64,000 nucleotides of DNA from Dudresnaya verticillata (taxonomy: Eukaryota): the NCBI GenBank assembly GCA_977862235.1, contig OZ374557.1, positions 1,488,001-1,552,000 on the forward strand, in the 5' to 3' direction. The notes below the pieces were generated by a model that saw only the letters and a program-made list of their open reading frames with translations, was not told the DNA's origin and searched no databases. Of the stretch, positions 14,269-43,276 are shown piece by piece (within the stretch, counting starts at the first letter, position 1; each line of letters starts with the position of its first letter). The position numbers and the translations under genes are program-made.

Positions 14269-14299
14269 CGCACACACCCTATCTAGGGTAGCCTGAAAA

Positions 14300-14687: not shown

Positions 14688-14793
14688 ATCCGGATTCCTG
14701 GACGCTAGCACGCGCTGATCCGATCGCTCAAGGCAACTCCCAAGTTTGTTACGATCGTAACAACAGTTCAAGTTTCTTCATCTTCCATTCAAG

Positions 14794-15171
14794 ATGCCGC
14801 TCACCCGTGCCCAGATCAAGACGCAGGTCGCATATTTCGTTCGAAGGCTGGAGAAGACGCGCATAAGGAACCCAACGGCTCTAGAACTCATGGACGTAGC
14901 CCGACCTACACTGGACAACTTTGCTCCAGATACTGCTCCGGTAGCCGGATCATCCGAGACGGGTGACTTCGTTGTAGACTCAGCCGCTGTCTCCATGTTC
15001 ATCAAGTACATGATGCGCCCTGTGAATGAACTTTTCACAGACAACTTCTATAAGATGCCAATGTTCCCCATCATGGTATTATATGATGTTGCCGAGCTTT
15101 TTGTAGCAGTATGGGACCGGCCAGAAACAGCAAAGAACAAGAAAAGACAGCTGTCCGATGTCACACGCTAA
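14794..15171 (+). pseudogene. gag: N-terminal part of Copia E gag, cut by the Gypsy B LTR
   Basis: ATG about 105 bp after the 5' LTR. The ORF ends exactly at the B LTR boundary (15171/15172). Confidence 0.55.
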
Positions 15172-15905
15172 TGTGTGGTAGTTCGAGGGAGGTTTGGTAG
15201 AGGCTTGGAAGGAGGCGGGCCCTGATGACCCGAAAGGGGGGTGCGGAAGCACGGCAAAGACCCGGCGCGACCGACTGAGGGAAAGTATAGAGGTTGCGAA
15301 CCGGTATTTAGTAGAGTACTTGTCGTACGATTTCCGGGCCTGTACTGGGCGACCCCTGCAGGCGCGGAGCGTCCGAGCGACCAAAAGGTGGAAACTTCCC
15401 GAACAACTCCGCGGAGTGTTTATTCTGAGGGCGCCGGCTATTCCGGCGCCCATAAGTAGGGCTTGACAGCCAAAAAGTCTATCAGCCCGAAAGGGGGTCT
15501 AAGTTAGTCTATGATTATAGTTACGTAGGTTAGTACAGTCAGTACAAGTCAAAAAGTGGGAATGCATTCCAGTTAGGGGACTTGGTGGTGGATACGCCGG
15601 TGGTCAAGCCGAGGTCCCGGCTGCACTGTCGATACCCTGAGCGCAGGGGTGCTCCTCGTTCATGAGTAGGAGCGCAGCGGCGCGTCATAAATCAGCCAAT
15701 ACGAGGCGTCCAACTGGCATCATTACAATGCCATGTGTACGCCACGTGTACAGCTGTAGGGCCACGTGTACACACGTGTATCCCACGTGTCGTCCACTTG
15801 TACAGCGATGAAAGGATAGCTGTCCTGATTAAGGGACAGTCTGTCCCGCGAAAAGAAGTGTGCTCCCGTAAGCCCTTCTGCTGACAGCGTCCATGCTGCC
15901 ACACA
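15172..15905 (-). repeat. 3' LTR of Gypsy B (734 bp)
   Basis: Terminal inverted repeat TGTGTGG...CCACACA. Preceded on the minus strand by PPT AGAGGGGGGC (15906-15915). Confidence 0.85.
15743..15790. promoter_or_regulatory. Cluster of four G-box (CACGTGT) motifs in the U3 of LTR B
   Basis: CACGTG at 15743, 15763, 15773 and 15784. Confidence 0.55.
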
Positions 15906-16155
15906 GCCCCCCTCTGAGGACCGAAGCGGCCCGCGAGGCTATGATTGGCGGTTTCTGAATCTTAAATCTCCTTCGTGAGCGGTTGAGCGCCCAACGGCTG
16001 TCTGCGTATCACGCCCTGTGGGGGATTAAGTCGGGCCGGCGGCCGCACAGGCCCGAGTTACATGCGTGTCATCGCGGGCCATCACCTCAGTGTTCGGGCA
16101 CGCCCGTCTCAACGTCGGCGGCTCTTGAGCGTTGCGGCTCACGAGTTTGCACGAG

Positions 16156-16186
16156 CCAATTTTGGCGCGGCTGCACGGCTATATAA
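16156..16186 (+). promoter_or_regulatory. Candidate CCAAT + TATATAA promoter for the antisense ORF of B
   Basis: CCAAT at 16156 and TATATAA at 16180, on the ORF strand about 530 bp before its ATG. Confidence 0.35.
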
Positions 16187-16714
16187 GCAGAGGGTTGGAA
16201 CCCGATTACGACTTCTCACGTCTCGGCATCGACAGCCCGCAGCAACTCAACGCTCTTCAACAGGGCTCACCGCGCTACGCCCGTCGGCATCCTTCTCTTT
16301 CCTCCTTCATCTTGCTTGCCCGCGGCCGTCGCCTTGCGCCATCAACACCGACGCTGTCCGTGCGTCGCTGCCATCTCACAGCGGGAGGCGTGCTCGCCCT
16401 TTTCATCCAGACGTCAGGCGTAGCGGCAATTCCGCGAGGGACTTCGGAGCGGCGCTCACCCAACTGCGCACCTGCCTTCGCAACCGGCCGCTATCTCCGG
16501 CGTACTCGCTCACTTCGTCCCAACTCCCTGTCGGCGCGGACAGGTTTCACGGTGTTGCTACACCCTCAAGAATTTCAGGCAGAAGGACGTCAAGTCTCAG
16601 GATCAAGCTCTTCAGGTCGAAGTTCAGGTAGAAGACCGGAAGGTTCAGGTAGAAGACCTCAGGAAGAAGTTATTCATCTCCGCGGCGCTCCGCTTCACGA
16701 CTCCTGCGGCCCGT

Positions 16715-19042: not shown

Positions 19043-19567
19043 CGTCCTTTCCACTTTATTGAGCTCGCATCGGACGCTCCCTAGGGATAATAGATAGGTG
19101 TGAGTGGGGGAGCGCCCGATTAGCTAGTGGACCTTTCCGCGTTGTAACGCCTGAGTAAACTTTGCATTGACCGAGTACCCTTCTCCTCCCGCGCGGTGGC
19201 ATACCATCCTCGCTCTGACTTAGCGTGGAGACCATCGCGTGTCCTTGACCGGGGGAATTTTCCCATAAATTAGAGTACAGTGCGGACTGTAGAGTGCAAA
19301 AAATTAATGTTAAGCGGCGCTCCGCGCGGTCATTGGTGCGGGGCTTCGCGGCGTGCGTTTGGTGGCGGCACCGGAAAGGTAAACCGCCATGATTGGCTGT
19401 GTCTTTTGGCAGAAGCTCCACCAAGAGGCGTTCGCCGTGAGCCCGAGCCAGGGAAGCGTCGCAGCCACTGATGGCTCTTGTTTAAGTTAGCCGCTGTACA
19501 GCGTAGTTTCGTTTGTATACATATGTAAGGTGTTGTGGTGCCAATCGGCCTCACACCTATTCATTTC

Positions 19568-19722
19568 AGCTCCGCAGAGCGCATCTATCCAGGCTTCTGC
19601 CAGCTTTCATCTATCCACATCCGCTCGTCCAGCATCTATCCAATTTTAGCTCCGTAGAGCGCATCTATCCAGGCTTCTGCCAGTATACATCTATCCACAT
19701 CAGCTCGTCAGGGCGCATCTCA
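19568..19722. repeat. About 79-bp tandem duplication with an internal CATCTATCCA motif
   Basis: AGCTCCG(C/T)AGAGCGCATCTATCCAGGCTTCTGCCAG occurs twice; CATCTATCCA occurs five times. Confidence 0.85.
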
Positions 19723-19803
19723 GGGCTTCGCGCCCTGTTTCCTTAGCTCGGCTCGCTAGCCCACACATCAGTAGGGCAACAGCCTTAGGGGTAGTAACCC
19801 ACC

Positions 19804-22800
19804 TTATGATTCGTAGGGTATTCCCTTGGCGCGGTGGTAGCGTGCTACGAGATTATGGGGAAGATTTCCCCTTGGCTCCCACGTGTCCTTGGTGGCAGGG
19901 GCCTGATACCAACGTATCCGATATAGATGTTCCAGCGGGGCATAGTCAACAATGCGATCATATTCATGCTCTCGAGCCGAGGTTTTGCGTAAGCGGGAGA
20001 AAGAGTGCGGAGGCTCGATTGGAGGAAGAGGAGGCTCGACGCCACGACTGGCCAAGGTAGACCCGGGCGCAGGCGGCGCGACTATTGTGGGAGTCTCCCC
20101 TTGGGCGTCCAACGATTCGTGCGGCGTGGGCGCCCGCGTTACGCGATCCAGCGAGATTGTCTCGCGTTCACCCTTCACGTCTATCACGACCACATGAGTG
20201 CTTCGCTCAACAACCTTATACGGGCCCAGTGCCTTTGGTAGCAGTTTGCCTTCGCGTGCCACGCCGTCAGCGTCTTTGAGCTTTGTCTCTCGCTGGACAA
20301 ACACCCACTGTCCGGGTCGTATCTTCTCATTGGCGGGACGCATCCTGTTATTGAAGTTCACTTCATAGCGCTTCTGCACCAGGCGTAGGCGAGGGAGTGC
20401 CGTCTCTACTAACGTTTCGAGCCGGCGAGTTAAACGCTTCTTGACATTGGTAGCAGGCACGTTTGCCACATCGACTGTCTCGGCGCGCTCCATTAGGAGG
20501 GAGTTAGGAGGGTTCGACAGAACGAGATCTACAGGGGCGAACCCAGTTGCCTTGTGGACAGTCGTGTTATAGGCGTATGTCAACGCGGGGGTAAACGCAT
20601 CCCAATCAGTCTGATCCTCAGCGATGAAGTGACGTAATCCAGCCAGAAGAGTGCGGTTGAAGCGTTCAGTTTGCCCGTTCGACTGGGAGTGGTAAGTTGA
20701 CGTAAATAGATTGCGGATCCGCAGAATGCTACACACTTCCATAAAGAACTTCGATGCAAATTGGGACCCATTTTCCGAGAGTAGATATCGTGGTGGTCCA
20801 TACACGTAGACCCAATGGTCACAAAAGGCTTTCGCCACTGTATAGGCCGTGATGGTCTTCAAATGGACCGCCCTGGTAAGCTTAGAGAAGCGATCAGTAA
20901 TAACGAGTAGGTACTCATTACCTTTGCCTGAACGGGGAAGCGGGCCCAATATGTCAATGCCGACGAATTCGAGAGGCATAGTTGCCGGGAATAACTTCAT
21001 AAACGAAGTTTGCTTCCGCAGTTGTACTCTCTCCCTGGAACAGGTCACGCAGTTGCGTACAGTTGCATAAACCGCTAATGCCATGTCTGGCCAATATACT
21101 TGACGTTGCAGATTTTGATACATGCGCGTGCCGCCTGGGTGTCCGGCCATTACGGGGTAATGAGCGAGGTGAAATACTCGCTCTTGTAGCGTTTCGGGTA
21201 TGAGCACCTGCCGTGCGCCATCAATAGGTGCTTTCCGGACAAGCAGTACCAACTCGTCTTCTAGGTAACAACCGGGTCTACCACCCTCGATCCCCGCTCT
21301 AATCCGCAGGCAGAAGGGATCTGTTTTCTGTTCCCGGAGGAGCTCCTCAATAGTCAAGAGTGACAGAGATTTCTCATCCACATCCTTCTCGGCGGTCGCC
21401 ACTAAGAGTTCGTCTGCAGACGTAGGCTCGTCGAAGGGTTCGATCTCCCACGCTTCGATTGGACTATCAGACCAAAAGGGGGGGTGTTTTTCCCAGTGGT
21501 GTCATCCTCGATAATATAGCAAGGGACGTCCAGATCCGGTTCGCGGCTCGTATAGCCAAACGTAGGAAGGCGTGAGACAGCGTCTGCTATTTGGTTCTTC
21601 TTACGCTTCTTGTATTGGACTGTAAAGTCGTACTCGAGTAAGCGTAAGCGCCATCTCGCTAGGCGTCCCGACGCGTCGGTCATACTCATAATCCACTTCA
21701 GTGCTTGATGATCTGTGTAAAATTCGAAATGTGTTCGCTCCAAGTATGGACGTAATATCTGCACGGCCCATACGACGGCGAGGCATTATTTCTCTCCGAC
21801 GGAGTAGTTCTTCTCAGCGGGTGTCATCCGTCGACTCCAGAAACCAATGGGATGTCTTTCCCCCTATCGTTCATCTGCATGAGTGCATAACCTACTTGAT
21901 ATTCACAAGCGTCAGTGTCGACCGAGAGATTACTTCCCAGCTTTGGCAGTTGTAGGATAGGTGGGGCGATCAGCGCGCGTTTCAACAGCTCGAAAGCTTC
22001 CGTTTCGCTTTTGCCGAAGGCGGTAGATCAAACTCCACATCTTTCTGTAGAAAGGCATTGAGAGGTGCGGCGACTCGCGCGAAATTCGGGACGAACCGTC
22101 GGTAGACATTACATAATCCAAGAAATGATCTCAGTTGCGTCTGCGTTCGTGGTTCTGTAAACCCCTCTATCGCTTGAGTGTTCTTGGTCGCAACCACTAG
22201 GAGACCGGGGCGAATCACATGTCCGAGATAGTCGACACTCTTAGTAGAGAAGTTACACTTCCGCAGTTTCAGCGAGACGCCAGCATCCTTCAGGATAGTG
22301 AGTATCTCCCTTACGTGGGTAAGGTGTCCGTCGACGTTCTTCGAAAAGATAATTATATCGTCTAGGTAGACCAAAGAGGTTTTCCACCTGAAGCCTGAAA
22401 GCAGGATATCGATTGTACGCTGAAACGTCGCGGGGGCGTTACACAGCCCGAATGGCATTCGGTTGAACTGGAAGCTTCCCGCATGACATGTGAACGCAGT
22501 CTTGTGTTGGTCCTGTGGACATACTGGGATCTGCCAATATCCTGAATTACAATCCAGAGTCGTAAACAGCTGGGCGTCGCCCAAGGAATCGAGACATTCG
22601 TCCATTCGTGGAAGTGGATAGGAATCCTCAATGGTGATGGCGTTCAGCCTGCGGTAGTCCACGCAAAAGCGTAACGAGCCGTCGGGATTTTTGACCAAGA
22701 CCACGGGGCGTGCATACTCCGAACGGGCGGGCTCTATAACGCCTTCACGAAGCATCTTCTCCACTTCCTCTTGTTCCGCCTGTCTGGCCTTTGGACCAGC

Positions 22801-24060
22801 GCGGTACGGTTGGGTAAACACGGGTGTCGACCCTTCCTTGAGTTCTATACGGTGTTCCGTTACCTTAATCGTTCCGAGTTGACCACTCCACATAGGGGCG
22901 AATGGCTTAAGCATCTTGCGAACGCGCTTTTGATCCTCGACCTGTAGGTGTGTTAAGTCCAAATCGTCTATTGTTTTCGCTTTCACCGCTTCCGTCACGC
23001 CGGGCGTCGTTGACGACTGTTGTATCGCAGCAGCAAGCCCTGCCCCCCCACATTGGAGAAAGACTCGGAATGCGAGGCCGTGTCGGGCGCAAGAGACGGG
23101 GCGTTCCCAAAGGACAAAGCGTACACCGGCGTGCTAGAAGGCGCGGGTATCGCGCGGCCAAGTCGTTGGCGCTTCGTGAGCTGTTGCGGCTTTCGCGAAA
23201 AATTCGCTACCTTGACATGGAACAGGCGGTTCGGAGCGATCTCGGTGATGCCGTTGGACAGGACGATTCCTTGTGTCTTGTATAAAGGTTGGAATGCATC
23301 CATGAAGTGTGTACCCTGGGCTGGGCATGTAACCGCAACCCAGGTTTCCGATTCCGGGGGTAGTAGAATAGCGTGAGCGACGCGGATATGCCGCTGCACG
23401 GGGCGAGGAGGTATCTCCGTAGTTTCGGTTGGTCTGTCGGGACGTAGTGGACCACATTGGCGTCTTAGAATGGGGTGTTGCGACCCGTCACGGAGTATCA
23501 CCGTTTGGTTGCGCACGCGCAGCGTGTCGACGTGATTATCGATAAAGGTACATCCGAGAATCATGTCGACCGCTAGCGCGTGTGCAACAACAAATGGTTG
23601 ACGTACTGTGTAATGTCCAATCCGGACCAGGAGAGAAATACTTCCAAGGGTAGTTAGTTTGTGCCGGCTGGTCGACACTAAATTACAGATTGGTCGTGAA
23701 GTCGACACCTTCTTCAATTCTGCCTTCGACAGGACATCAGCTCTGATGAGGTTCGGACCTGCTCCAGAGTCCAGTACGGATAATACGCGAGTGCGTTTTT
23801 CAGTGGAAGTCCCGACGGCCTCAGCCACTTTATAATTGTAGCGTGACAGCGCGCATACGGGATTCCTACAATACTCTTCGAACGTACGCCCTGGAGGGAG
23901 GCCAATCGGGCGAGCTAATACCTGCTTGGGTAGAACCAGAGGTGTCTCGACATCCGACCGTTCCGATGAACCGGGAGTTGGCAAAGCGCCAAGCGGGTTG
24001 CTACCCTCATTTTTCGGATGATCGGGGGGCTCCGGGGTGGAACCCCAGTCCCCCTAGCTA
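19804..24060 (-). pseudogene. pol: Gypsy B pol: protease, RT, RNase H, integrase, chromodomain (several frameshifts)
   Basis: LDSGAGPNLI (PR), RFCVDYRRLN and YLDDII (RT), YTDHQAL (RH), GHPGG..C..C and DILGP (INT), GPY, YRIRWY..DTWEP (chromo). Confidence 0.95.
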
Positions 24061-26417
24061 GTTTTTCGGCTGTGAGCCGGGCTTGCTAGCCGGGGAATGT
24101 GTTAAAGGGGGTGGTGGAGGAAAGGGGCGTCCGCCCATGCGAGGTGATCTGGGAGAGTGAGACCGCGGCCATTGATCGGGTGGTTCAATCCCGCCTTGAA
24201 ATTCACTTGGCGATTTTTCTGGAACTGATTTCCCGGCCTTCCGGCGTTGTCTGGCCCTGTCCAGGTTGGAGGAGGAGACTCCTTGGCGAAATTCGGGAGA
24301 TGGCCTACGACGGCGAGCCAGTCCTTTTGTTGCCGCGACAGCGCATAGAAATTCTGGCGCATCAGCGTGGCAAATTCCAAATCGTCCGTACGACCTAAAT
24401 GCGGGCAGTTGGGCTTCTTGTGGCCCACATCAAAGCACTCAAAGCAAATATCGTTCGGGAGATCATCGACTGTTACCCATCCGGGGCGCTGTTCCTTGGA
24501 TGGCTGTGCCCATGCGGGGAGCCTTGGATTTTGGTTAGACAGAACCGCATGAACTGCTTCATAACGGCTTCTGCCCTCACTAGGCTCTCCGGACCATGTA
24601 TCCGTCGGTAACACCGAGGACGGGCCCGCGTCGCGTTCGAATGCAGCAACTGCCTGCCCGTTGGCATCTGAGTCACGACTCGAAGAGTCATTATCCGAAT
24701 AGGGGTGGGATGTTACTCGAGCGACCGGCTGCCCTTGTCGAACCAGCAGAGTTCTGCTCGACTTGCCAGGGACGGCGCGTGTCGTCAACTTCTTACGGGG
24801 CAGCATCCCGGAGGACTTCTCCTTCCTTCGACTGGCTCCGAAAAGCGCGCGGTGGCAATCACTTTGGGCGGTGGCTAGCTCCACGTAATCCGCGAGTCGG
24901 GCCGTCGCCGGGTCCAGTGAGGTGGTACTCAGCAATGGCTTGACAGCGGGTAGAAACCCTCGGATGAACCGTGTTATGAGGTCCTGCTCCGATTACACTC
25001 CTGCGACTCTTCGCGCGTTATTCTGGAGCCTCCTTGAGAATGATACCTCATCCTCGTCGGGCTCCTGGGACATGCGGTCCATTTCGGCAGCTATGCGTTC
25101 GATGTACACGTCCTTCGCGAAGCTTCGCAGTAAGTAGTTCACTGCCTCCGGCCATTCGGCGAATCCCCCAATATCGTCGCCCGCGACGTCGAAGTTCGCC
25201 TCGAAGAGATCTTTGGCGTCCTTCTCGAGAAACTCCGGTATCACTAGGATCGCGGCTCCTTCACTGACATGCGCTTGGTCTAATTGACGCTTTAGCGTGG
25301 CTAGAAAGCCGATTATCGATACCGGGTCACTACCATCAAAGCGTCGACTGCGCATCACGGACTTGATCCGCTTAATCTTTCGGGACGTCGATTCCGTTAC
25401 CTCGGGTCCCCGGTACGGGTCAAGGTTTAACAACCGGTATCGTCGATACGAAAGCACGTTAGCGAACGCTGGATTCCGTGGTACCAACGCCTTTAGGCCT
25501 GACCGGCGTGGTCCTATCCAAGAGGACCTTGGCTGGCTTCGGGAGTCCGCTCCGAATGCACCCTCCGGCTCGGCGTCACGATGCGAGGACTGCCGTTGCT
25601 GGTTGTCCACTTGTCGGCCATGCGGCGTTACGGGTCGCGACCGATAATCTCGTGACGGGGAGCCGTCCCGGTATCCACTTCGACTTCGTCCCATACATGG
25701 GTTATCGCCATGTCTGGTACTGCAGAGGCACTGACTGTGCGTGTCCGGCTGTCTAGGAGGATACCTCTCTTCGCGATGGTACAGGTCGTCACCCCTTCTT
25801 CCATCCCGATGCGGCGAAAGTCGGCGTCGGTCGCGTGTCCCTCGTGGGACAGGAGACCGACGTCTCTGGATTTCAGGGGATTCATCCCGTTCACGCATCA
25901 GTCGCCTGACACGAGCATCCAAAGTCGCGACTCTTCTCCTTTCTTCATCGAGTTCCTTACGGAGGAGCTCGATGGCTTCATTCTGTTCGGCGCACCGCGC
26001 GCCGTCTGCGTTATGATCAACGCCTCTAAATGCCACAAGGGCGTCGTTCCTCGACTGGCCAACTTCTCGGGAAAGCATTCCCACAGTGTCGTGGACTTCC
26101 TCGACACGCTCGACCAGCGAATTAACTCGAACGCGAAGCGTCGCGAGTCCTTCCTCTTGCGGGATGCCGGGGTTTCCAAGAAGAATTCGGGACGTTATCT
26201 CCTCTTGACATCTGGTCAGCACTTCTTCATTCTGGCGAACGGCCGACTCATCGATATATCGTTTGATTCTTGAGATTGACTCGTCCACCTGGACTTCTAA
26301 AGCTGCTGCCAGCTCAGGACCGACTGTCCGTTCTATTCCATCTTGGATCATCCTTCCGATTTCTCGTTCAGTGAAGCACCGTTCGGCGGAAGAATTGGCC
26401 TTCGACCGGATAGGCAT
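24058..26417 (-). pseudogene. gag: Gypsy B gag with coiled coil and CCHC zinc knuckle
   Basis: ORFs 24993-26417 and 24102-24935 are separated by one in-frame stop. Contains FDGSDP and CFECFDVGHKKPNC. The original end is probably ...SQPKN* at 24058. Confidence 0.88.
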
Positions 26418-26420
26418 CCC

Positions 26421-27933
26421 TCAATTAGCTTCCAACGTGGCCACAATCGAGTTCGATGAAGACCCATCCTTCCCCATCTCAGAGGCTGATTTCGGTGTTG
26501 CAACGTCCGGAAGGAACCCAATGCACGCACTCACCCAACCCCATAGTTCACTATCGACGGGTATTGGACTTGGAAGACCATCCCCAGGCAGACATGCCCA
26601 ATCTGTCGTAGGCCAGAATGGATTCAATACTTTCCGTGACCGTCAACAGCCTACCAACCCTGATCATCACAATGTTGCTGAGAATCAGCAGTACCGTCGC
26701 GCTCAGAGCGATCCAAGGGATGATTCAAGGAAGGCCAATTACGTCCAACAGATGTTTAAGGAATCCAAGTTCGATGGTGACTTGTCCCAGGACATTAACC
26801 TTGCCCTGCAGTTATACGCAGTATGCGCAAAGCAGCATCACCTCTCCCAGTCACAGAGGGCGGACTACCTTGTACACATCTTCGATGGACCTGCCCACAA
26901 GTTTTTCTTCGAGAATACCAGGGACGGCATGACATACCAGGAGAAGGTCCAGATCATGTTCAAAGAATATCTTTCCGACGCTCACCAGCTGCAGGTCAAG
27001 GGAATCGTAGAAACTATCCACCTAAGGTCGTTCATGGAGGAACGTTATCTCACTGATGTCTCCACTGGCTTAACACAACTTGTTTCGAAGCTCAACGAGC
27101 TAGTTCCCCAGTGCTCCAGAGACTTCCGCAGCGACTCCATGAAGATCGACTATCTCCGTCGCGCCGTCGCCGAGTTTCAAGATTGGGCACGTATCCCAAT
27201 TCATAACATCGTCTCTCAAATCTATACATTCAACGCGTTTGTGACTGCTCTGCATGAGTCAATCCAGACACTCCGACAGATTCAGGTTCTCTCGAATAAC
27301 CCCGCATCAACTTCCCTCACCGTCCTGGCCCTCACGGACCCAGGTCTCAGCAATAAGCTTTACATCGAGACTAACCTCACCCAATACGGCCGTAATCCGC
27401 GCAAGCTATCCCAAGGTGGACGCGGAAATGGCCGCCCCACCGCCCCGATACGACCACATCACGGTAACCGCCACAACGGACAGAATGGATTTCGCTATTT
27501 CTCCGACGCTCGTCGACGCAACGAGTGCTTTCGATGTGGAGCTCCAAATTGGACCCAAGCCATCGCTGTAACAAAGGAGCTATCCTCTCGCATGCCAGGC
27601 AGCGCATTTAAAAAGGATAATCCGCTGCGTACATCCGTCGCAGAACTCGCCCGCGAGCTGGAAGAAGACGTGACCATCGAAGAAGAAGTTACAAATGGAA
27701 ACCCCATTCATTTTCTAGGAGAACAACACGCCCGAGTAGAACACGACCTCCAGCTGTTTGACACCGCACTCATCAACGTTGAGGATACGGAAGAGACTGA
27801 CACTGGATATGTTCAGCCTATAGAAGCAGTGGAACACAGCATCTACGCTTCTCACATCGCTTCATCACTAGCCCCGGATGCCACACAAGAAACAGAGCTA
27901 CCCTTGGTTTTTCGACCGGGCGACAAGAATTAA
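26421..27933 (+). pseudogene. gag: Remainder of Copia E gag
   Basis: KFDGDLSQD...L..Y (gag capsid-like) and CFRCGAPNW (degenerate knuckle). It resumes directly after the start of B gag. Confidence 0.8.
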
Positions 27934-27951
27934 AGCCCGGACCTTGTCGCC
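27906..27951 (+). other. Putative -1 ribosomal frameshift signal of Copia E
   Basis: G_GTT_TTT in the gag frame, followed by CCGGGC/GCCCGG and GGCGACAAG/CTTGTCGCC pairings. The -1 frame is open into the protease ORF. Confidence 0.7.
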
Positions 27952-30900
27952 GACCAAGTGACCAATGGCGCACGAGGCATCGCACTACCACTCCGAGGCA
28001 CCCCTCACGACCTGAAGGCCAAGAATTCGAAATGTTCGACATACAGGTTGGCTCCCTTGCTCAAGAAGTCCGCTCAAATCGTCCAGCAGGCTTCTGTGTC
28101 GATATAGGCGCTCCCAAATCAATAGTTGAACGCAAGGAACTAGATCGTATTCTCACCGCGTACGGAATACATCAACTTCGAATCATGCCTTCAAGTAACA
28201 GGTTCCGCTTCGCCGACGCAACGTACGACTCGTTGGGCAGAATCTCATTACCATTACTGACCCCGTCAGGTGTGCAATGCATCGATGTCGATATGGATAT
28301 CGTTCACGCTGACATTCCAGCTTTTCTAGGAATGGTCATCTTGGACAAACACTCTCTCACCCCATGTACAGTCTCTAACCGCCTCATCAAGCTAGGAGTA
28401 CGTGAGACCGAGGGGGGAGAGAAGCGTTACATCAACGAATGGAACGTGTCGCTCACAAGGTCAAGCAGTAACCACCTCTATGCTCAGATCCAATTCACGA
28501 CTGCGAGTCACTTCACTCGTACCCAGTTGCGAAAGCTGCACCGGCAATTCTTCCATGCCTCAAGCCAGAAGATATTCAACCTAATCAAAAGAGTACGCAC
28601 ACAGGACGCTAAACCTGAAACACAGGCGATGCTCAAAGACATTGCGAAGAGATGCGATTTATGTCAACGAATACAACACACACCACTACGATTCTACGTA
28701 TCCCTTGGTGCTGAGAACCTTCGTCTCGTTCTCCTTGACATCATGACCTTAGACTCATTCCCCGTCCTACACATCGTAGACGAGCCCATCAAGTTTGGAT
28801 CTGCACGGTTCCTCCCAGATACATCCACGGGCACTGTTTGGCAGACATTCCTAATGTGTTGGGCTCACATCTACACAGGGATGTCCAATCACATATTGAC
28901 CGACCAAGGATCTCAGTTTGGCCAGAAGTTCATCCACATGGCTCGAATGTGCAATGTAGAAGTCAACCGCACCGGCATTGAGGCACATGCCAGTCTCAGA
29001 CTATGCGAACGATACCACGAGCCTCTCCGCAACATGTACCGGAAGATCAAGCTGCTACATCCCACAGCAGATAAACACCTTATCCTCTCGTTCTTCATCA
29101 AGGCCATGAACCATACACTAGGACCCGAAGGACTAGTCCCATCTGCACTTGTCTTCGGCGAATACCCACAGCTTCACACGACATCCGAAGCCACAGGTTC
29201 CCGTCCTACTACAGCACAACGTGCGAGTATTTCCACAGCGGCACGTGCAGAGATGAAGCAACAAATGGCAAAGATGAAGCTCCGGCGAGCTATGCACCAT
29301 GCGGTGCCACCAGCTAGAGACCGAAGCTATGAGCCTGGAGACCGTGTGCTAGTCTTCTGCGACAAGGTAATTGCCAACAGAATTGGGTAATGGCTAGGAC
29401 CTTACGAGGTCGAGTCGGTAGATTACGACAAGAAGCTCGTCTTCATCAACGACATTCCGGGAAGAACAGCACGCCCCTTCGGTATCGCCCAAGTCAAGCA
29501 GTACTACGCGCCTGAAATTCTTGCCCACACCTTCATCGCCGATCTTGAACGCTGTTTCCATCAATTCAGCACCCCCGATGACGCAGACAACTCAGTCTTC
29601 TTGACTGAAATCTTGGATCCTAATGACGAACGAGCCAAAGGAAAAAGGATGGACGAGGCCAAACGGGCCGAACTGGTTAACCTCATGAAGAGAGGAACCT
29701 TTAAGGTCATGCTGAAGGAGGATATTCCACCTGACGCCAGCGTCCTCCCCGGTCGTTTTGTATATGCAATCAAGTCCACTATCGACGGCAAGGTAAAATT
29801 CAAGGCTCGCTACGTCATTGGCGGCCACCGCGATAAGATGAAGGACCTACTTGTGCACTTAACCACTACTTTGCAACCGCAGTCGATTCGTCTTCTTCTT
29901 GCACTCGCCGGAATTTTTGGTTCTGACATCTGGACCGCCGATATTCACCAAGCGTACTTGTTAGCGTCTGAACCACTCGCACGCGAAATCTTCATCGGCA
30001 AACCGGCATCAGAGTTTAACCTCTCCAAGGAACAATGCCTCAAGCTCCTGAAGCCCCTATACGGCTTGTGTGATGCCGGAGACGTACGGCACACAATCCT
30101 GGATAAGCACCATCGTCCCGAGCTTCACATGAAACCCTTCCGTATCGACTCTTCCCTCTACTACTTGTTGCGTAATGGAGTCCTGGAAGGAATAAGCGGA
30201 TGCTACGTTGATGACCTCATCCGTTCTGGTACCACTGAGTTTCGCAAGGTATCAAAGCTCACCAACGAGGGCTTCGAGATTACCGAGGACAACCAGCTCC
30301 CCGCAGAGTTCACCGGATTCATCCTTGATTGAAACAAGAACGGAGAGATTCCCATCGACCAGAACGAGTATCTCCGCAAACTAGAATGTCTCCCGCTGGA
30401 ATCCTCATTTCGGCGCTTCCGATCAATGCGGATGAAACTAGCATGGCTGTCGACCTCAAGACCCGATTGCCTCTTTGAAATTTCCCAGCTTGCACAAATT
30501 ACTAAGGAGACTTTCAATTCCGGAAAGGCCACAGTCCTGCGTCGTCTCAACAAGGCCGTCAAGTACGCCGTGGACAACCGAGTCCGACTCCGAATGCCCC
30601 GACTTGACCGAAGCACCCTGAGGGTGGTTGGATTCTCCGACTCATCGTTTGCCAACAACCGGAACTTGTCATCACAGCTTGGACACATAGTATTTCTATC
30701 GGACGCCATAGATGCCGTTGTATCCATCAGCTTCAAGACGTACAAGTTACGAAGAGTCACCAGATCGGCAATGTCCGGAGAAGTCATCGCCTTCTCCGAC
30801 ATGTTCGATATCGCAATTGCGTTCTCGCAAGAGGTATCGCAGGTTATGAACCAGCAGGTACCCGTGCAACTTCTCACGGATAGCAAGAGCCTGTTCGACG

Positions 30901-31136
30901 TCATCTGCAAAGGTTCACGCACTTCCGAGAAGCGCATGATGCTAGATATAGCAGCTGCTCGAGAGGGTTTCCGTGACAAAGTCATATCAGATATTGGATT
31001 TTTCCGAAGTTCCGACAACATAGCAGATGGATTGACTAAGATGATGACCCAAGCAACCCTGCGCAACTTTGTGGTCTCAGGCTTCCTTCGTGTCCAGCCC
31101 GAACAGTGTATTGTGCGTTCCGAGCATCAGACATGA
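27912..31136 (+). pseudogene. pol: Copia E pol: protease, integrase, RT, RNase H (premature stops)
   Basis: FCVDIGAP (PR), LHRQFFH..C..C and LTDQGSQF (INT), KARYVIGGH, LLKPLYGL and YVDD (RT), FSDSSFAN, TDSKSLFD and ADGLTK (RH). Stops at 29390 and 30332. Confidence 0.95.
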
Positions 31137-31163
31137 AGTACTGTACATTTCTTCATCCAATAC

Positions 31164-32472
31164 CTACAGAAGCTCGAATATCTCTGCTACAAACAAGTTA
31201 TTACAACCCCGCCCCACACACATACGCAAGCTTTCCGAGCTCAAGCGCAGCGGGCAACGTTCCACAGAATCGAGTAACACCTTCCTGAATGCATCTACAA
31301 CCACACAGGGATCGACCCGATGACCGACATCCTGCATCAGGCGCACCAAGTACACCCCGGCACAAATATCCGCAATGATGCGGAAAGCTTGCTCGTACTT
31401 TCCTCTTTGGATTTCCTTCCTTTCCTTGGGACGCTGAAAGCGCAGCTTCAATCCCATCTTGTTAATAACAGGTCCCGCCTGACTGAGGTTGTGAAGATGC
31501 TTCACCTCCTTCGACCACACCTTACAAGCTTTTGACACACCCTCGTCAACTCGCAGCAGACCAATAGCATTGATGACTGCGGCAGGGACACAGTCAAACC
31601 CAGCAGTACCGGCACGGCGGCCCCTGCAGGAGGGCAGCCTGTACGGTTGCAAGGCCGAGTTCACATCCCGGGCACCAGGCCCCCCCCATCATCACAGCAA
31701 CACCGGGATACCTTCGACAAAATCCCATAATTGCGCCACGCACCACATGCTCACGGCCGCTTTTCGTTTGCGTCCTCGTGTTCACCGGTGCCGGTATTAC
31801 ACATGCCCGCGGTACCACTTTTTGCTGCGACAGTACCTCCCTGGTTGCGTACACAACACTACACGCCATGCACAACTCGACCGAGAACGAGAAGGGGTCA
31901 ATTTCGTGGTATCCATCGACACCAGCCACATTGCTGGGTGCACCATACCATGTTCCAGGCTTGAGTGTCTTGCCATACATGCTGAGACCGGTTCCCAAGA
32001 GAACCGCATCGAATTGCCAATCTGCAGTCTCCTTGCTGTGCATGCCAGCATCACCCGAAATTTCTTCTTCACTTCCAGTATCTGAACCTGTTGATGACCT
32101 TTCCTCACTTGCCTCAATAGCCTCATCGTCGATGAGGGAATGGCGCACGGCAGTGTGCCTACTGTGGGGAATTGACACGCGCTTCAGCCGTGCACGCTTA
32201 CAATCAAGTGGGTAGCCTATTGCGTGTGGAGCAGAACGCTTACGCACTACCGCGCTGCCGCCTGTTGAACGGTCCGGATCACTGGTAACCGCACCATCAG
32301 CTGGAACAGAACATAGCGATAGGATGGAGGCGGCGTCCCCGATGGAATCAGTTGAGCCGTCAATCCTCACCAAAGATCCACCAGCATCGGCACGTATCCC
32401 AGACACCGGCGTAAAAGGCCCCACCATCGAGGCAAATGCGCACGTGTGCGGAAAAGGCGCGCAAGAGTGCAC
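31164..32472 (-). pseudogene. Antisense accessory ORF of Copia E; C-terminal part papain/C39-peptidase-like
   Basis: Overlapping ORFs 31594-32472 and 31164-31664 (frameshift). Motifs FDCVPAAVINAI and GVYLVRL...GHRVDPCVVVDAFRKVLLDS. Confidence 0.5.
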
Positions 32473-32651
32473 GCGTCGTCACGCCACCAAAGGTCGCGCA
32501 GATCGCGCGCGGAACAAAAGAGAAGAACGAGTGCCAGATCGATACGAAACCGCTCGCGTTGCGCCCCACAGGACCTAAAAAGGGCTCCATGAAGTACCCC
32601 ATTGGTTGACTCGGCGCTTCCCGAAGACGCCGGGCGTTGCGACAGGGGGAG

Positions 32652-33039
32652 TGTCGCGTTGAGCCCTCTTTACAGAAGTGACGCAACGGCCACTGTACGA
32701 TAGCTTACAGTGGGCCGCCGACGCCGTCGTCCGACCGCCGCGCGCCCAAGCCGAAGCCTACTTCAAGTACCCCAGGCGCGCCCGACCGGACCGCACAGGT
32801 ACGACGACGGAGAGGTATAGTAGCGTAGACGCGAGTCCGCTACGTCAGCTGTGGAGGACTTCCACCGCCCTTCTCTACGCGCCGTAAACGCTCACTCCGC
32901 TCATCCCGCTCGCTCCACACCCGCGTTTCCTTCGACCTTTGCCCCGCTCACGCCCCGATCATCGCGCACGGTCCTCGCAGGAGTTCGTTGCAGACTCTCC
33001 TGACCGCCCGAGCGTGTGTCTAGTGCTGACCATACGACA
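32652..33039 (+). repeat. 3' LTR of Copia E
   Basis: Direct repeat of 14300-14687, preceded by a PPT and followed by the TSD. Confidence 0.95.
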
Positions 33040-33327
33040 GAAAAGGGGGTTACAGACTTGGTAAAAAGCGAAAAACAGGGAAGCGAGGCTAAAGGGGAGG
33101 AAAAACGGATGGCGCCACAATAGTCCACGTAGATTACAAACTCCTCCAAAACGATGGTTCGTAAAGCATTGGAAAGGGAGGAGGGAGGGAGGAGATACGA
33201 TGAATCCGTGTAAATAGATCTGAAAAAGAGTACCGACCCGAAACCTACCGTTCGTAATATTCAGCAAATCCCTGCCAGTCAGGGACAAAATAAATATGGC
33301 GAAGGACGAAGTTGTGTCATAAAAAAT

Positions 33328-37346: not shown

Positions 37347-37833
37347 TGTAGAGAACCGTTGCCAAGTGGCACTACAGGCTTGAACCGTTTCCAAGTGGCA
37401 CTACAGGCTTACTAGCTTGAAGCTTTTGTTATACAATTTAGAATTGTCAGCTCTACTCTAATCCAAGAAGATGTTCCGTTGCAGGAACAACTTCTTCCGT
37501 TGAAGACGTAACATCTTCAAGCCTGTCCCCGGAGATAGATGTTTTGAACTACCATGTCCCCGGGGGTAGTTGTTCTGAGGGCATGGCGGTTGGGGCTACT
37601 GTAGAAGATACCGTTTAAGAATAGAACAGCTACTTTATCCATACCGTTTAGAATCAGCAGTAGTGCTGTTCTTTATCAAACGCATAGAGTAGGCTCGGAG
37701 CTTTGGAGCAAGCGGCTCCGTAATGGAATATAAAAGCTCCGCCCTTTTCTCTCTCAAGGAAGAAAAGGGCAGAGGTCTTCGCATTGAGCACAAACAAGAC
37801 AGCACCCAACAAGTCAAGGAGGAAGTGATTATA
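37347..37833 (+). repeat. 5' LTR of Gypsy F (TGTA...TATA)
   Basis: Direct repeat of 42791-43276. It begins with a 29-bp tandem duplication. Confidence 0.95.
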
Positions 37834-38071
37834 GAAATTTCTTTTCCCTGCAGGAGACGCAATTTCCTTTACTATTGCTGTTGTCAAGTTGTCTACTCGT
37901 CAAGTGTTTCTACCTGTCAAGCGTTGTACCCGTCAGGTGCTACTATCGTTCAAGAGTGCTACTTGTCAAGTATTTCTATAAGTGGATTGTTTTGTAATCT
38001 ACTGGAACTGGTGTACATACGAAGCAATTGTACTACCTCTCAGTCGCCTTGGTTATTTTTGAAATAGCATC

Positions 38072-41000
38072 ATGCCACCGGTCACTCGTTCTGGAATTGA
38101 GAGCGGGCCAGGTCGCTCGGATTTTGGCACATCCAGTGCGCTGTTCGCACCCGTACAGCATCCTGTACTAAGAAGTGTCGACCCGCTGAAAGTCTCCGCG
38201 TTCTTACGGGAGCGGGAAAGATATGTAGATGAAGTCGAGGAGAAGAGCAGAGAAGCCCCAGGAATGAGCGTTGCTTCATTCAAGGTTTCTGTGGATAGGA
38301 GTCTGCTAATGACGATGCATAGCCTCGGTAGAATGGATTCTACTGCTAATTCTGTCGCGCTTGAAGATCCCACGTCCGAGCAAATCGAAGAATGGGTGAG
38401 GAGCATAGTGTGCAAAGCTAATGCCAAGGAAGTCAACCCTACCATAATTCAGGACACTCTGAAAGGCATAAGAATGCCTATGAACATTTCAGATCCAGAG
38501 GCTCGAATACTGGAATATGTCCATGATGTTTTTGAAAGACTGAATGGAGTTGGCTATTCTTCTTTCAGGGAGCGCAATCCTGAGAAGACAGTGAAACTAA
38601 TACAAGAACATGTCTACCCCCTCCATCTGAAAGCAGCTATGGCAGAGCACCTTGAATTTCAAGCTGGACTGAAGAAAAAGGTCAATGATTACGTATCTGT
38701 ACTTTGCAATGAGGCTGTCATTCAGGACAAGATCAGACCTACCAGGACGAGTGTTGAAAAGGATGATAAGGGAACAAAGAAGGCAAGCTCGTCCGGCTCA
38801 AGAAATGGCAAGCCGAAGACGGATGGACGTAAGTCAGCTGGAGCTTCTAAGTCTGGAAAAGGACCACAGAATCGTCGCGAACTTCTATGCTTGAATGAAG
38901 ATTGCAAGCGGAAGGGCATCAAGCACCCAGGCGGTGTTCGGCATTGCCCTAAGACGAGCACCGATGAAGCAAACAAACTAATACAGTCGTTCATATACGA
39001 AAGGGAAAGCAAGAAGGCTAAAAGTTGTGCGGATACTCAGTCTGACACACATAAGCAGCCTGAGGATAACAATTCTACACTCATGAGTGTAGTGTTCGCT
39101 GGATTGGTTTCGACTAGATTGTGTGCAGACGGGGGTTCTGACATCAATTTAATGCCACAAAATATATTCAAAGAGTTGTTGCAACGACGTGCACCCATGA
39201 AGGTCAAAAAGTTCGACCGTGCCCGTAAGTTCGGCCTTGCTGCTGCCGAAATGCATGTCGCATGTGACAGGGAAGTCACACTAAATATTGAACTACGAAT
39301 CCGCCATGGCAAAACGTTACTGATTCGAAACTTAAAATGGCTCGTGGCTGTAGACACAGTTGACGAACCACTACTCGGTCGTCCTATCCAAGAAGCGCTT
39401 GGATTAGATACGAGGAAGATTCTTGAAGCCGCATGCGACAGATATCAAGGCGAGGTTGATGCTGGTTTGGTGATGGAGGATGAGTACCAGGAGGTATCTA
39501 TCGCCCGCATTTTGTCGTCTGGTCTTTTTCATTCCGACCAGGGAGTGACGGGGGAGGTGCCCGATAGTCTTTCCGAGCAACGCACTGAGCTTGGAGAAGA
39601 CTCACCCGCAGAGTTGAAAACTGCATTTAACAAGATGTTGGAAACTGCTTCTGACAATGGTTTGAGCGCAACTGGAAAGTTGAAATTGGAAAAGCTGCTG
39701 GCAGCATATACGGATGTTTTCCGTGTGCGCCTTGGTCCGGGCCCCCCAGCAAAAGTAGAACCAATGCGGATCAACATCAAGCCAGGTTCTGTAGCCTACA
39801 TTACGAAGGCGCGGCGCTATTCTGCTGAACAGCGTGACTACATGAAGCGATTTGTCGGAAAGCTTTTAGAATACGGCATGGCCATCCCGAACCCAAATGC
39901 TGAGTGGGCATCCCCACTGCTACTCGTGCCAAAGCCTGGTACTAAAATGTACAGGCTAACTTTCGACCTTCGCATGGTCAATCAGTGTACTCAACCAATG
40001 GCCTGGCCAATGCCACATTTACAATCGGAGCTGTTGGACTTCGCAGACAGCTCTTGCTTTGCGAGTATAGATTTCTGTGCAGGTTACTGGCAGATGCCTC
40101 TACATTCCGAGAGCCAGCATTACCACAGTTTTCTAACACCTTCTGGTGTTTTCCAGCCTACAAGAACACTACAAGGAGGCATGAACGCAGTGCAGAACTT
40201 CCAGTCCCGAGTGGAGCCATGTTTTCAATCTATTCGTGGTGCAGTCAAGGCTTGGCTAGACGATTTTGCAGTGCATACCAAGGATGAAGGAGACCTTATA
40301 TCCTATCTGGAAAGGTTCTTCGCCATCTGTAGGGAAAAGAACCTGAAAATATCTGCAAAGAAGTCTGTGCTTTTCAGCACTTCCTTGGAATGGTGTGGGT
40401 ATGTGGTCGACAAGGGTGGTGTCACTTGTGACCCAAGACGTTTGAGTGGACTCAAGAATGCGTCTGTTCCAGAGAACGGCGCCGAGTTGTCACAATTTAT
40501 GAACTGTTTACAATGGATGTCGCAATATATTCCCGACTTTACTACTCGTGTGGCAACACTACCCGCAGTTCTTGAAGAAGCTTATACAAAATCGGGAAAG
40601 CGTACTTCACGGCCCATACAGGGCATACGACTTTGCAAATTGTCTTGGGGCCAAAAGCACGCTGAAGCCTTTAACGACCTTCAAGAACCGCTTCGAAATG
40701 CGGTGAAACTCGCGCATAGGGATCAAAAAAAGACTCTTGGCGTCTACACCGACGCATCTGATGAACACTGGGCGGCGGTAGTTACACAGTGCGATCCACC
40801 ATGCTTATAAAAGCCAATAGAAGAGCAGATGCATCAACCTTTGGCTTTCCTTGGGTCCGCATTTAATGAAACGCAGCAGCATTGGACAACCTTTGAGCGC
40901 GAAGCATATGCTGTGTATCAAGTTTTCGAGAAGATGGATTACATGTTCTCCTGCGAAGCAAATATTCATCTGTTCACGGACCACAGGAATTTTCTTTTTG

Positions 41001-42753
41001 TATACAACCCTGTTGCATTACGACCAAGCCTTGGAAGGCATATCATCAACAAGGTTCAGCGCTGGGCACTGTACCTTTCTAGGTTTATGTATACAATCGA
41101 ACACGTCGAGGGCAGCCGCAACATTACTGCCGACATGATGACACGATGGTTTGCTGGCTATCGAGGCAAACATAACCTTGCTAAACGTGTCACTCGTGCT
41201 ATAGAGGCCCAGGACCTTGTTCATTCTCCATATGAGAACACGTTTGAATGGCCGTCCCAGGAAATGTTACTGAAACCACAACAGTCCGCAGATAATGTTC
41301 CTACACGATTGAAGAAAGGAAAGGATGGTTTACTACGAGATAACACACGCATTTGGATACCTGATAATAATGTGGACTTGCAATTGAAGTTGTTAGTAAT
41401 ATCGCATTGTGGGGCAGGTGGACATGGAGGTGTGGAATCGACCTGGAGTACACTTAGGAAGCTGTACCAATGGAACAGTATGGAGGCCGATGTGAATGAG
41501 TTTGTATCAAATTGTTTGCACTGTATCATTGGGAAAAGTGGAAACCGCATTCCAAGTCCAACATCTATTACCCTTCACGGCACGAAGCCTAATGAAGTTG
41601 TTCACTTCGATTTCATATTTATGGGGGTTGGCATAGATGGTTTGAAATACTGCCTCATCATCCGAGACGATCTTTCGTCTTACTTATGGATATGTCCAAG
41701 TATGGCCGCGGATGCAGAAACAGTGTTGAAAGAGCTTTCAAGATGGATACGAGTATTTACGGCAATGAAATACTGGGTATCGGACCAAGGGTCGCATTTT
41801 CAAAATCAAGTTATGGAAACTTTGGCTAAGATCTACAAAGTTGAGCACCGGTTCACAGTTGCGTATTCGCCTTGGGTTAATGGTACGATTGAAGTTTGTA
41901 TGCGACATATTAAGGCCGCTTGCACGGCGTTACTCTCAGAACTCAAGCTTGGGCCACAAGATTGGCCACTGGTTATTGACACCGTGATGACGGCGCTGAA
42001 TGAGGCTCCACACCGGCGCCTAGGTAAGCGCATCGATGGGACGTACAGAACACCCCTCGAAGTCATGACCGGAATACTACCCAATCGCATCAACTTTGTG
42101 GTGCGACACCAAGAAGAGACAGAACCAGTCCCGATAAGTCAAGTCCGCGTGCATCAACTCATTAACATCAATAAGTTGCAGAATGTTTTAGAAGACATGC
42201 ACCGCGATGTGGCTAATAATGTCTCCAATAATAGGCAGAGGCAGATAGCGTATCACAACCAGAAGACAAACCTCGTTACGCCTAGCTTCACAATTGGCGA
42301 TTTTGTTCTAGTGCGCAGAGCGCAGAATAAGGGACACAAAATGATGTTTCGATGGGTGGGTCCGCGCCGTATTTCAAGGAATATTGGTGACATGGTTTAT
42401 GAAGTAACCGGGCTCATGGATAACAAGACTGAATTGTTCACGCCGCTAGGCTACTCCTCTACAAAGCCAGCTTGGATGGCGCTCCTGTTTCTAAAAATCT
42501 GATGAAGCAAGCCGAACATATCGAGACTAAGTTTGAGATGGTCGAGAAATTGCTGGATATCGGCGAGGTGTCCGACAGAATTTTCTTTCAAGTGCAGTGG
42601 TTAGGGCAGCCTGATACTACTGACTGGACGTGGCAGTCGTTGCAGCAGATGTATCAAGACATTCCGCAACGCGTAGAAAGCTTCCTACGAAAAACACGTA
42701 AGAAGCGTCTTGCGAAAAAGGCACTCAAAGAACTTGGCATTAAGGAGAAGTAA
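38072..42753 (+). pseudogene. pol: Gypsy F gag-pol polyprotein (one premature stop at 40808-10, one frameshift near 42440)
   Basis: CLNEDC..H..HC knuckle, CADGGSDIN (PR), YWQMPL and WLDD (RT), YTDASD (RH), HCGAGGHGG and SDQGSHF (INT), QVQWLG..DWTWQ (chromo). Confidence 0.95.
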
Positions 42754-42790
42754 TACTCACTAGGACTCCGCCCTAGCAAGTATGGGGCCA

Positions 42791-43276
42791 TGTAGAGAAC
42801 CGTTGCCAAGTGGCACTACAGGCTTGAACCGTTTCCAAGTGGCACTACAGGCTTACTAGCTTGAAGCTTTTGTTATGCAATTTAGAATTGTCAGCTCTAC
42901 TCTAATCCAAGAAGATGTTCCGTTGCAGGAACAACTTCTTCCGTTGAAGAGGTAACATCTTCAAGCCTGTCCCCGGAGATAGATGTTTTGAACTACCATG
43001 TCCCCGGGGGTAGTTGTTCTGAGGGCATGGCGGTTGGGGCTACTGTAAAAGATACCGTTTAAGAATAGAACAGCTACTTTATCCATACCGTTTAGAATCA
43101 GCAGTAGTGCTGTTCTTTATAAACGCATAGAGTAGGCTCGGAGCTTTGTAGCAAGCGGCTCCGTAATAGAATATAAAAGCTCCGCCCTTTTCTCTCTCGA
43201 GGAAGAAAAGGGCAGAGGTCTTCGCATTGAGCACAAACAAGACAGCACCCAACAAGTCAAGGAGGAAGTGATTATA
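42791..43276 (+). repeat. 3' LTR of Gypsy F
   Basis: Direct repeat of the 5' LTR, followed by AATG. Confidence 0.95.

Follow-up and report, generated by a model that had tools for sequence, protein, structure and literature searches.

The minus strand of the window (the whole stretch of DNA that was analysed, 64,000 nucleotides long) carries a coding region at 31164-32478 that lies in the space separating the pol gene from the 3' LTR of a Copia-like retrotransposon and is read in the opposite direction to pol. This arrangement raises the questions of whether the region is a gene of the element, what type of protein it encodes, and what such a protein could contribute to a retrotransposon. A preliminary description had proposed a cargo gene for a C39-like cysteine peptidase of the papain fold, possibly acting against host defence.

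The Copia element and its antisense gene

The element at 14295-33044 is a Ty1/Copia LTR retrotransposon, as is evident from the order of its pol domains, an RVT_2-type reverse transcriptase (RT; Pfam E 6.1e-17, 62.5 bits against a cut-off of 31.6), a TG...CA LTR pair, a 5-bp TSD and a polypurine tract (PPT). The two LTRs (14300-14687 and 32652-33039) are 388 nt each and 97.2% identical by self-BLAST, with 11 mismatches in 388 positions and no gaps. The integrase matches the Pfam family rve at E 0.0081, which is below the family cut-off, and the aspartic protease motif DIGA is retained within 27801-29390, as it is in the related locus L007. No TGG-type PBS was found after the 5' LTR, nor a tRNA-Met PBS, and the palindrome at this site has no clean second arm and is absent from L007. 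The copy in the window is dead: pol is interrupted by two in-frame stops, and a nested Gypsy-type element of ~11 kb has been inserted, on the minus strand, into the 5' part of the Copia; self-BLAST detected no second LTR copy, and hence no LTR pair, for the nested element. Directly behind the 5' LTR, a 136-codon frame without a Pfam match (14761-15171, plus strand) ends at the nested insertion and is possibly the start of the Copia gag. The features are as follows.

14295-14299, plus strand: 5' TSD copy, GAAAA, with the same 5-mer at 33040-33044
14300-14687, plus strand: 5' LTR of Copia, TGT...ACA, 388 nt, pairing with 32652-33039
14687-14696, no strand: 10-nt perfect palindrome at the expected PBS site, overlapping the 5' LTR by its final A
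15173-26420, minus strand: nested Gypsy-type element with gag, protease, RT, RNase H plus integrase; boundaries approximate
26209-27933, plus strand: Copia gag-like frame, 3' part, stop-to-stop limits, with tblastn match to the gag regions of L005, L006 and L007
27801-31136, plus strand: Copia pol, protease-integrase-RT-RNase H, with in-frame stops at 29388-29390 and 30330-30332
31164-31688, minus strand: antisense 3' frame, predicted papain-fold domain, with the Cys codon at 31590-31592, the Asp codon at 31269-31271 and the stop at 31164-31166
31680-31687, minus strand: run of eight G with the single frame break, placed by the profile match positions
31681-32049, minus strand: conserved N-terminal domain, ~120 residues (profile positions 18-140)
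32050-32427, minus strand: Ser/Ala/Gly-rich N-terminal extension; relatives have extensions of like kind and variable length
32644-32651, plus strand: polypurine tract directly before the 3' LTR
32652-33039, plus strand: 3' LTR of Copia, pairing with 14300-14687
33040-33044, plus strand: 3' TSD copy, GAAAA, with the same 5-mer at 14295-14299

Two overlapping frames free of stops make up the antisense coding region, one of 294 codons (31594-32478) and one of 174 codons (31164-31688). A profile built from 39 long relatives fits both of them, over positions 18-140 in the former (E 2.5e-23) and 139-306 in the latter (E 1.9e-57), and because the family profile matches the two frames end to end, they are regarded as one gene with a single frame break. 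The break, within the run of eight G, reflects either decay or a homopolymer error in the assembly. The long frame has its first Met codon at 32427 and the next at 32043, each being a candidate start. All of the sequence motifs originally quoted were found on the minus strand at 31266-31595, namely DCVPAAVINAI (31563-31595), GVYLVRL (31338-31358), GHRVDPCVVVD (31293-31325) and LLDS (31266-31277), with the Pro codon CCC of the third at 31308-31310. This codon occupies the column that holds His in relatives, and the Cys and Asp are kept. With its frame break, a Pro in the His column, and an element whose pol is broken and which bears a nested insertion, the copy of the antisense gene in the window is a pseudogene.

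The stop of the antisense gene is 27 nt from that of RNase H (31134-31136), such that the two genes are arranged tail-to-tail. In 1000 dinucleotide shuffles of 31137-32630, a two-frame cover of at least 1312 nt was never obtained (0/1000) and a 294-codon frame was obtained once. Furthermore, the GC content by codon position of the antisense 3' frame (0.61/0.43/0.60) is akin to that of the Copia RT (0.57/0.36/0.61). The shuffles and the tail-to-tail stops uphold the proposal of an antisense cargo gene, convergent with pol, between the RNase H and PPT of a Copia element. Its description as the second cargo of this element is not upheld, the other long antisense ORF (16424-19042) belonging to the nested Gypsy.

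That ORF, an open frame of 872 codons on the plus strand without a Pfam match, is antisense to the nested Gypsy pol and lies between its integrase and 3' end. Long antisense ORFs recur in the Gypsy elements of the window: a 952-codon open frame at 52409-55267 (plus strand), likewise without a Pfam match, lies opposite a minus-strand Gypsy integrase (55650-56993) and inside direct repeats that are 93% identical (51908-52393 and 59109-59596). Two overlapping minus-strand frames of 205 and 261 codons at 2275-3572, opposite an integrase fragment (143-1218), are possibly a third antisense cargo. The window also contains a young Gypsy-type element (37347-43276), with LTRs 98.6% identical and a single stop that splits pol into 915 and 563 codons; an intronless gene for an SLC4 bicarbonate/boron transporter (11835-13631, minus strand; HCO3_cotransp, E 3e-129), less than 700 nt from the Copia 5' LTR; and frameshifted frames matching DUF7869 (7714-9088, plus strand; E 3e-11), which are probably the relic of a DNA transposon.

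The position of the gene was compared with that of its relatives in a metagenome scan with a 12-sequence alignment, which gave at least eight loci (L001-L008), all in one assembly, from at least 600 stretches. Among the eight matches listed, five (L002 and L005-L008) have a Copia RNase H tail-to-tail to the gene at a distance of ~20-110 nt, and the slot between pol and the 3' LTR, on the opposite strand, is therefore occupied in the window and in five of the eight loci. At L007 the gag, pol and antisense genes are all located inside one LTR pair, and at L002 a purine tract and an LTR-like stretch were read by eye upstream of the gene. The latter locus holds an open frame of 393 codons with the full triad, yet its RT and RNase H are frameshifted; L002 and L003 are the only ones of the eight listed with a full open frame. 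Among the Copia-linked elements RNase H is 45-68% identical and the peptidases are 17-60% identical. The two sets of identities are correlated (r 0.65 over 6 elements, reached in 14 of 720 permutations), though the test is a weak one, with comparisons that span 40-285 shared columns and a signal that comes mostly from one close trio. The Copia-linked loci fall on both sides of the deepest split of the family tree (FastTree).

No RNase H was found downstream of the gene at L001 (1349 nt) or L003 (~870 nt), even by profile at E<=5, and the ~120 nt available downstream at L004 are too short for a judgement. These three loci form one clade (FastTree support 0.91). Their genes are at L001:174-785, L003:539-1555 (fully open, with the triad) and L004:1679-2998, and a Pfam search of 25 flanking frames gave no useful match. 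They may be derivatives of the element (domesticated or non-autonomous), part of another element, or host genes, and part of the family may thus reside elsewhere. The genomic context comes from few loci in one assembly, against 142 proteins in the family; in spite of this, the antisense gene is almost certainly a real, inherited accessory gene.

An uncatalogued family with a predicted papain fold

A HMMER search of 1.84 billion representative proteins with the antisense 3' frame returned 142 matches at E<=1e-3, with 26 at 1e-10, and the best relative had an E of 5e-36 and 47% identity. P0055, a spurious repeat protein among these matches, was excluded. The family falls into at least 141 clusters at 50% identity. 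Its full-length members are ~270-440 aa long (P0055 apart, the matches do not exceed 439 aa) and begin with a low-complexity part that varies, followed by a conserved domain of ~120 residues that ends in GPGxR and by the C-terminal domain. With the 3' frame as query, word-index protein searches detected no relative among 51 near-length and 273 longer candidates, and a profile search returned 3 of 7992 candidates scored; these misses reflect the sensitivity limits of the method, since the full HMMER scan found 142 matches. Relatives were confirmed neither in viral contigs nor in prokaryote genomes (0 of 599 stretches), both of which are weak results as few patterns were used per scan.

No informative family was found in Pfam, PHROGs or NCBIfam for the antisense gene or its relatives. 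In fact, no peptidase family of Pfam matches any of the 98 aligned members, the family profile had no peptidase match among PDB sequences, and none of 19 relatives that were looked up has a name or accession. A PDB sequence match of the profile, to mitoribosomal mL43 (E 4e-4, in two weak stretches), was rejected because it misses the triad and disagrees with the predicted fold. Feature-based matches, which are leads only, were to unnamed viral clusters (0.95), a C39 cluster (0.93), of which 25% of the members carry PF03412, and DUF261 (0.92). To judge from these sequence searches, the antisense gene belongs to an uncatalogued protein family.

Conservation was counted over the 84 of 142 relatives with near-complete domains, aligned in 152 columns, with denominators that vary with coverage. 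The three best-conserved columns are the Asp (76/84), the His (75/84) and the Cys (70/79), and the full triad is present in 58 of the 79 domains that cover it and in 32 of 38 long relatives. The surroundings of the His mostly read VDH-C/A-V-V-V-D, and some relatives have intact frames, P0014, P0018 and the ORF of L002 among them. Also near-invariant, and as conserved as the triad, is the Arg of GPGxR in the second domain (37 of 38 long relatives). By crude hydrophobicity cut-offs, a signal-like stretch was found in 1 of 39 long relatives and membrane-like stretches in 2 of 39 (both borderline), and NLS-like motifs occur in 9 of 39 compared with 5.9 expected, which is not significant; the rarity of the former and the lack of enrichment of the latter fit a soluble intracellular protein.

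The fold was predicted for an intact relative, P0014, which is 33% identical to the window copy in the alignment, in place of the window copy itself, for which a single-sequence model had a pLDDT of 37.9. Modelled with a 98-row alignment, P0014 gave a pLDDT of 87.9 and a pTM of 0.83. In this model Cys191 begins a helix (191-202), His285 lies on a strand (283-290) and Asp298 directly follows a strand (295-297). In the published description of the papain core (PMC10318531), the Cys stands at a helix N-terminus, strand 2 bears the His and strand 3 a polar residue, and the predicted placement of the three residues in P0014 is this same arrangement, which points to a papain fold at the level of the family.

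The structural comparisons are in agreement with this assignment. A VIA-align search of 48,161 chains gave 12 at Z>=8, led by AvrPphB (1UKF; Z 9.1, rmsd 4.2, 149 aligned), followed by YopQ (Z 8.8), the C39 domain of PCAT1 (Z 8.7, rmsd 3.7, 130 aligned), a viral-tegument-like (VTD) deubiquitinase (DUB; Z 8.5, rmsd 3.3, 137 aligned), staphopain (Z 8.3, rmsd 3.6, 133 aligned) and Josephin-2 (Z 8.0), with phytochelatin synthase and a CD lyase at Z 7.3 and ZUFSP-type chains at Z 6.3 and 5.7. Rows within 1 Z unit count as tied, and the tool itself rates a Z of 8-9 as middling; papain-fold proteins make up nearly all of the top 50 matches, those at the highest ranks being mostly peptidases. Foldseek with the same model agreed in part, its top rows being mostly papain-fold enzymes but none reaching E<=0.001 (best 9e-3), and nothing in a viral fold library matched at E<=0.001 either. 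The matches span only residues 164-334 of the model. The N-terminal domain, although confidently modelled, had no fold match in searches that used the full-length P0014 model. Intact members of the family thus very probably adopt the papain fold with an active triad, a judgement that rests on the predicted model, and the fold as originally proposed has been sustained.

Enzyme class and possible role

What the family has in common with C39 peptidases (PCAT1, ComA; PF03412) is a compact papain core (Z 8.1-8.7) and the order Cys-His-Asp. The C39 label itself is not supported by closer comparison. C39 enzymes have an oxyanion Gln six residues before the Cys (Q15/C21 in PCAT1; PMC6959990), whereas in the antisense-gene family a Gln at this place occurs in 4 of 75 domains (3 of 38 among the long relatives) and no oxyanion Gln or Asn before the Cys is conserved. 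The aromatic residue after the His, which restricts enzymes to Gly-Gly sites, is reported as conserved in C39 and also in USP, UCH, OTU, Josephin, MINDY and the SUMO/NEDD8 proteases (PMC7391069), whereas His-[FYW] occurs in 4 of 84 relatives, the position being mostly Cys, Ala or Val. The spacings are likewise different (Cys-His 94 and His-Asp 13 in the family, 78 and 16 in PCAT1). Furthermore, PF03412 matched none of the 98 aligned members at E<=0.05 and neither window frame at E<=1, and of the fusion to an ABC transporter that is a C39 trait there is no sign, with no transporter match in Pfam for the 98 members and with the short length of the matches. In the fold search, C39 is tied with other families.

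The family shares the order Cys-His-Asp with YopT/AvrPphB (PMC9741609), and AvrPphB is the top structural match, but at 11% identity, with a lead of less than 1 Z unit (tied with C39, VTD and staphopain) and without a match at the level of sequence, as neither Pfam nor a profile search of PDB sequences (E<=10) turned up one of this kind. The window family also adds the conserved N-terminal domain of ~120 residues. The VTD, UFSP2 and ATG4 enzymes are described as lacking the aromatic residue and using an Asp-x-His triad (PMC9741609); this motif is absent from the family, in which the His lies 13 residues before the Asp and no conserved His follows two residues after it. ZUFSP, which combines the ordinary triad order with the lack of an aromatic gatekeeper, is a possible model for the family, though a lower-scoring one. 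By predicted fold and by sequence, the family is likened to papain-type peptidases outside C39 and outside the named DUB classes.

The explanation that best accommodates these results, and that is probably correct, is that of an extra antisense gene of one Copia lineage, the intact relatives of which would be papain-type Cys-His-Asp peptidases likely to cut a specific intracellular protein. By analogy with gene23 of maize Grande (PMC7264820), the gene would be driven from an antisense promoter within the 3' LTR or close to it. Its product would be a soluble intracellular protein in which the Cys nucleophile is activated by His-Asp, and would work as a narrow-specificity endopeptidase, in the manner of AvrPphB/YopT, on a specific protein substrate cut at a site other than Gly-Gly, with the N-terminal domain as the likely part for substrate recognition. 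The view of the family as specific endopeptidases with a protein other than ubiquitin as substrate is slightly favoured. A restriction factor of the host would probably be the substrate, and the retention of the gene from 60% down to under 25% identity would be explained if the element gains from it; taken as a claim in its own right, a host defence factor as the target is tentative. The most specific form of the proposal is rather doubtful, namely that an old, probably red-algal Copia lineage encodes an effector-like two-domain papain-fold endopeptidase, similar to YopT/AvrPphB, that cleaves a host anti-transposon factor. If it were true, the spread of the family over more than 140 clusters (at 50% identity) in which the triad is fixed would be the mark of an arms race, and the family would be the retrotransposon counterpart of viral accessory proteases and a pointer to the silencing or restriction machinery of the host.

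The first alternative is an atypical DUB or protease of ubiquitin-like modifiers without the gatekeeper, which would shield the element's proteins from degradation or undo SUMO-dependent silencing. Transposons repeatedly carry such enzymes (Helitron, Ginger1, Mutator, Dualen and NeSL/Utopia, in the published accounts cited below), the tied fold matches include Josephins (Z 8.0) and the VTD DUB (Z 8.5), and the ZUFSP, VTD, UFM1 and ATG8 proteases are likewise described as being without the gatekeeper. This reading is nevertheless unlikely, as is the earlier guess of a deubiquitinase or deSUMOylase: the aromatic residue conserved in the canonical DUB, SUMO and NEDD8 classes, the gatekeeper of enzymes that cleave at Gly-Gly (PMC7391069), is missing in all but 4 of 84 relatives; the triad order is not the Asp-x-His of VTD, UFSP2 and ATG4; the ZUFSP-type chains, with Z 6.3 and 5.7, rank lower; and no DUB family of Pfam matches any of the 98 members.

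Counting against a peptidase is the fact that there are transferases and amidases with a papain fold as well, such as phytochelatin synthase (Z 7.3), and a non-proteolytic acyl reaction on a protein or small molecule (by a deamidase, transglutaminase, acyltransferase or amidase) would be in keeping with the inclusion of such enzymes among the papain-fold families (PMC10318531), the scores of phytochelatin synthase and the CD lyase, the lack of a canonical oxyanion Gln/Asn before the Cys, and the GPGxR Arg of the second domain (37/38), which could bind an acidic group. Since the highest-ranked fold matches are mostly peptidases and nothing in the element points to a small-molecule pathway, such a reaction is improbable.

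An enzyme that processes the element's own Gag/Pol, or a particle-associated protein, would account for the stable linkage of the gene, which is inherited with pol across elements with RNase H only 45-68% identical. It is very improbable, given that the element has its own aspartic protease motif (DIGA, also in L007), that the antisense orientation implies separate expression, and that some family members have no adjacent pol. Finally, a captured passenger gene without a role for the element, as might be suggested by the broken state of the window copy and of most loci listed (L002 and L003 alone being fully open among the eight) and by L001 and L003, which lack RNase H and could be nearer to a host donor, is scarcely credible, because slot and orientation are constant and the triad is kept even though the peptidases are 17-60% identical and form at least 141 clusters, and because the broken copies have a broken pol too, while at L002 the gene is open next to a frameshifted RT and RNase H.

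Comparison with known systems

The preferred reading, a peptidase encoded by an inherited antisense gene, has precedents for each of its parts. As regards the Copia element, the TGT...CA LTR ends, 5-bp TSD, H-x4-H zinc finger, YVDD and ADxxTK are shared with the GalEa clade, which has been reported from red algae (PMC3587641, PMC5445492), and the palindrome at 14687-14696 is similar to a hairpin site that is conserved in the fungal members of the clade (PMC5445492). The motifs DIGA, KARYVI and SRPDC differ from the corresponding DTG(C/A), KARLVA and TRPDI of GalEa, this being a comparison of motifs rather than a tree of reference elements, and the accessible parts of the GalEa descriptions make no mention of an extra gene.

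Antisense ORFs between pol and the 3' LTR (aORF-3R) are described in maize Grande (gene23), rice RIRE2, Silene Retand, PvRetro13 and Botrytis Boty, and the review of them gives no clear similarity to other proteins for any of their products (PMC7264820). The window family resembles them, as there portrayed, in slot, orientation, retention across family members and lack of relation to gag-pol, and differs in its predicted enzyme fold and conserved triad and in having Copia as the carrier. Enzyme genes gained downstream of pol are also reported for the LTR retrotransposons of bdelloids, the ORF3 of which encodes a GDSL esterase or DEDDy exonuclease (PMC5408684); these are other enzymes, however, in elements with the pol order PR-RT-RH-IN, which are not Copia. 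Accessory enzymes are further described in red-algal DNA transposons (bioRxiv 10.1101/2025.02.11.637652; PMC6431247).

Cysteine proteases are known from other transposons, according to the accounts available: VTD and OTU DUBs in Helitrons (PMC9741609), OTU and Ulp1 in Ginger1 and Mutator (PMC2836005), Ulp1 in the VANDAL element Kaonashi (PMC13317346), a Josephin-like protease in Dualen (PMC8557442) and a Ulp1-like protease in NeSL/Utopia (PMC4640811); the Polinton protease is the sole relevant addition from the accessible part of PMC5718144. Like the window family, these are extra proteases beyond the core enzymes, for which evasion of host degradation or silencing has been proposed. In these accounts they belong to DNA transposons or non-LTR elements, mostly as fused domains, and to named DUB or SUMO-protease families, whereas the window family is a free-standing antisense gene of an LTR element, of an unnamed family, with neither gatekeeper nor Asp-x-His.

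The literature searched yielded no account of an antisense gene for a papain-fold protein in a Copia element, although Repbase, subscription papers and supplements could hold one. Antisense extra ORFs and transposon-borne cysteine proteases are both known, and what appears to be new is their combination in a Copia element and an uncatalogued papain-fold family. The interest attaches to the family rather than to the dead copy in the window; from the model, it appears to be a new papain-fold family with an extra domain and would extend the range of transposon-borne cysteine proteases to Copia, by an enzyme unlike the usual ubiquitin or SUMO protease. With its predicted enzyme fold, its conserved triad and members that are intact by nature, the family also makes it possible to test what antisense extra genes do for LTR retrotransposons.
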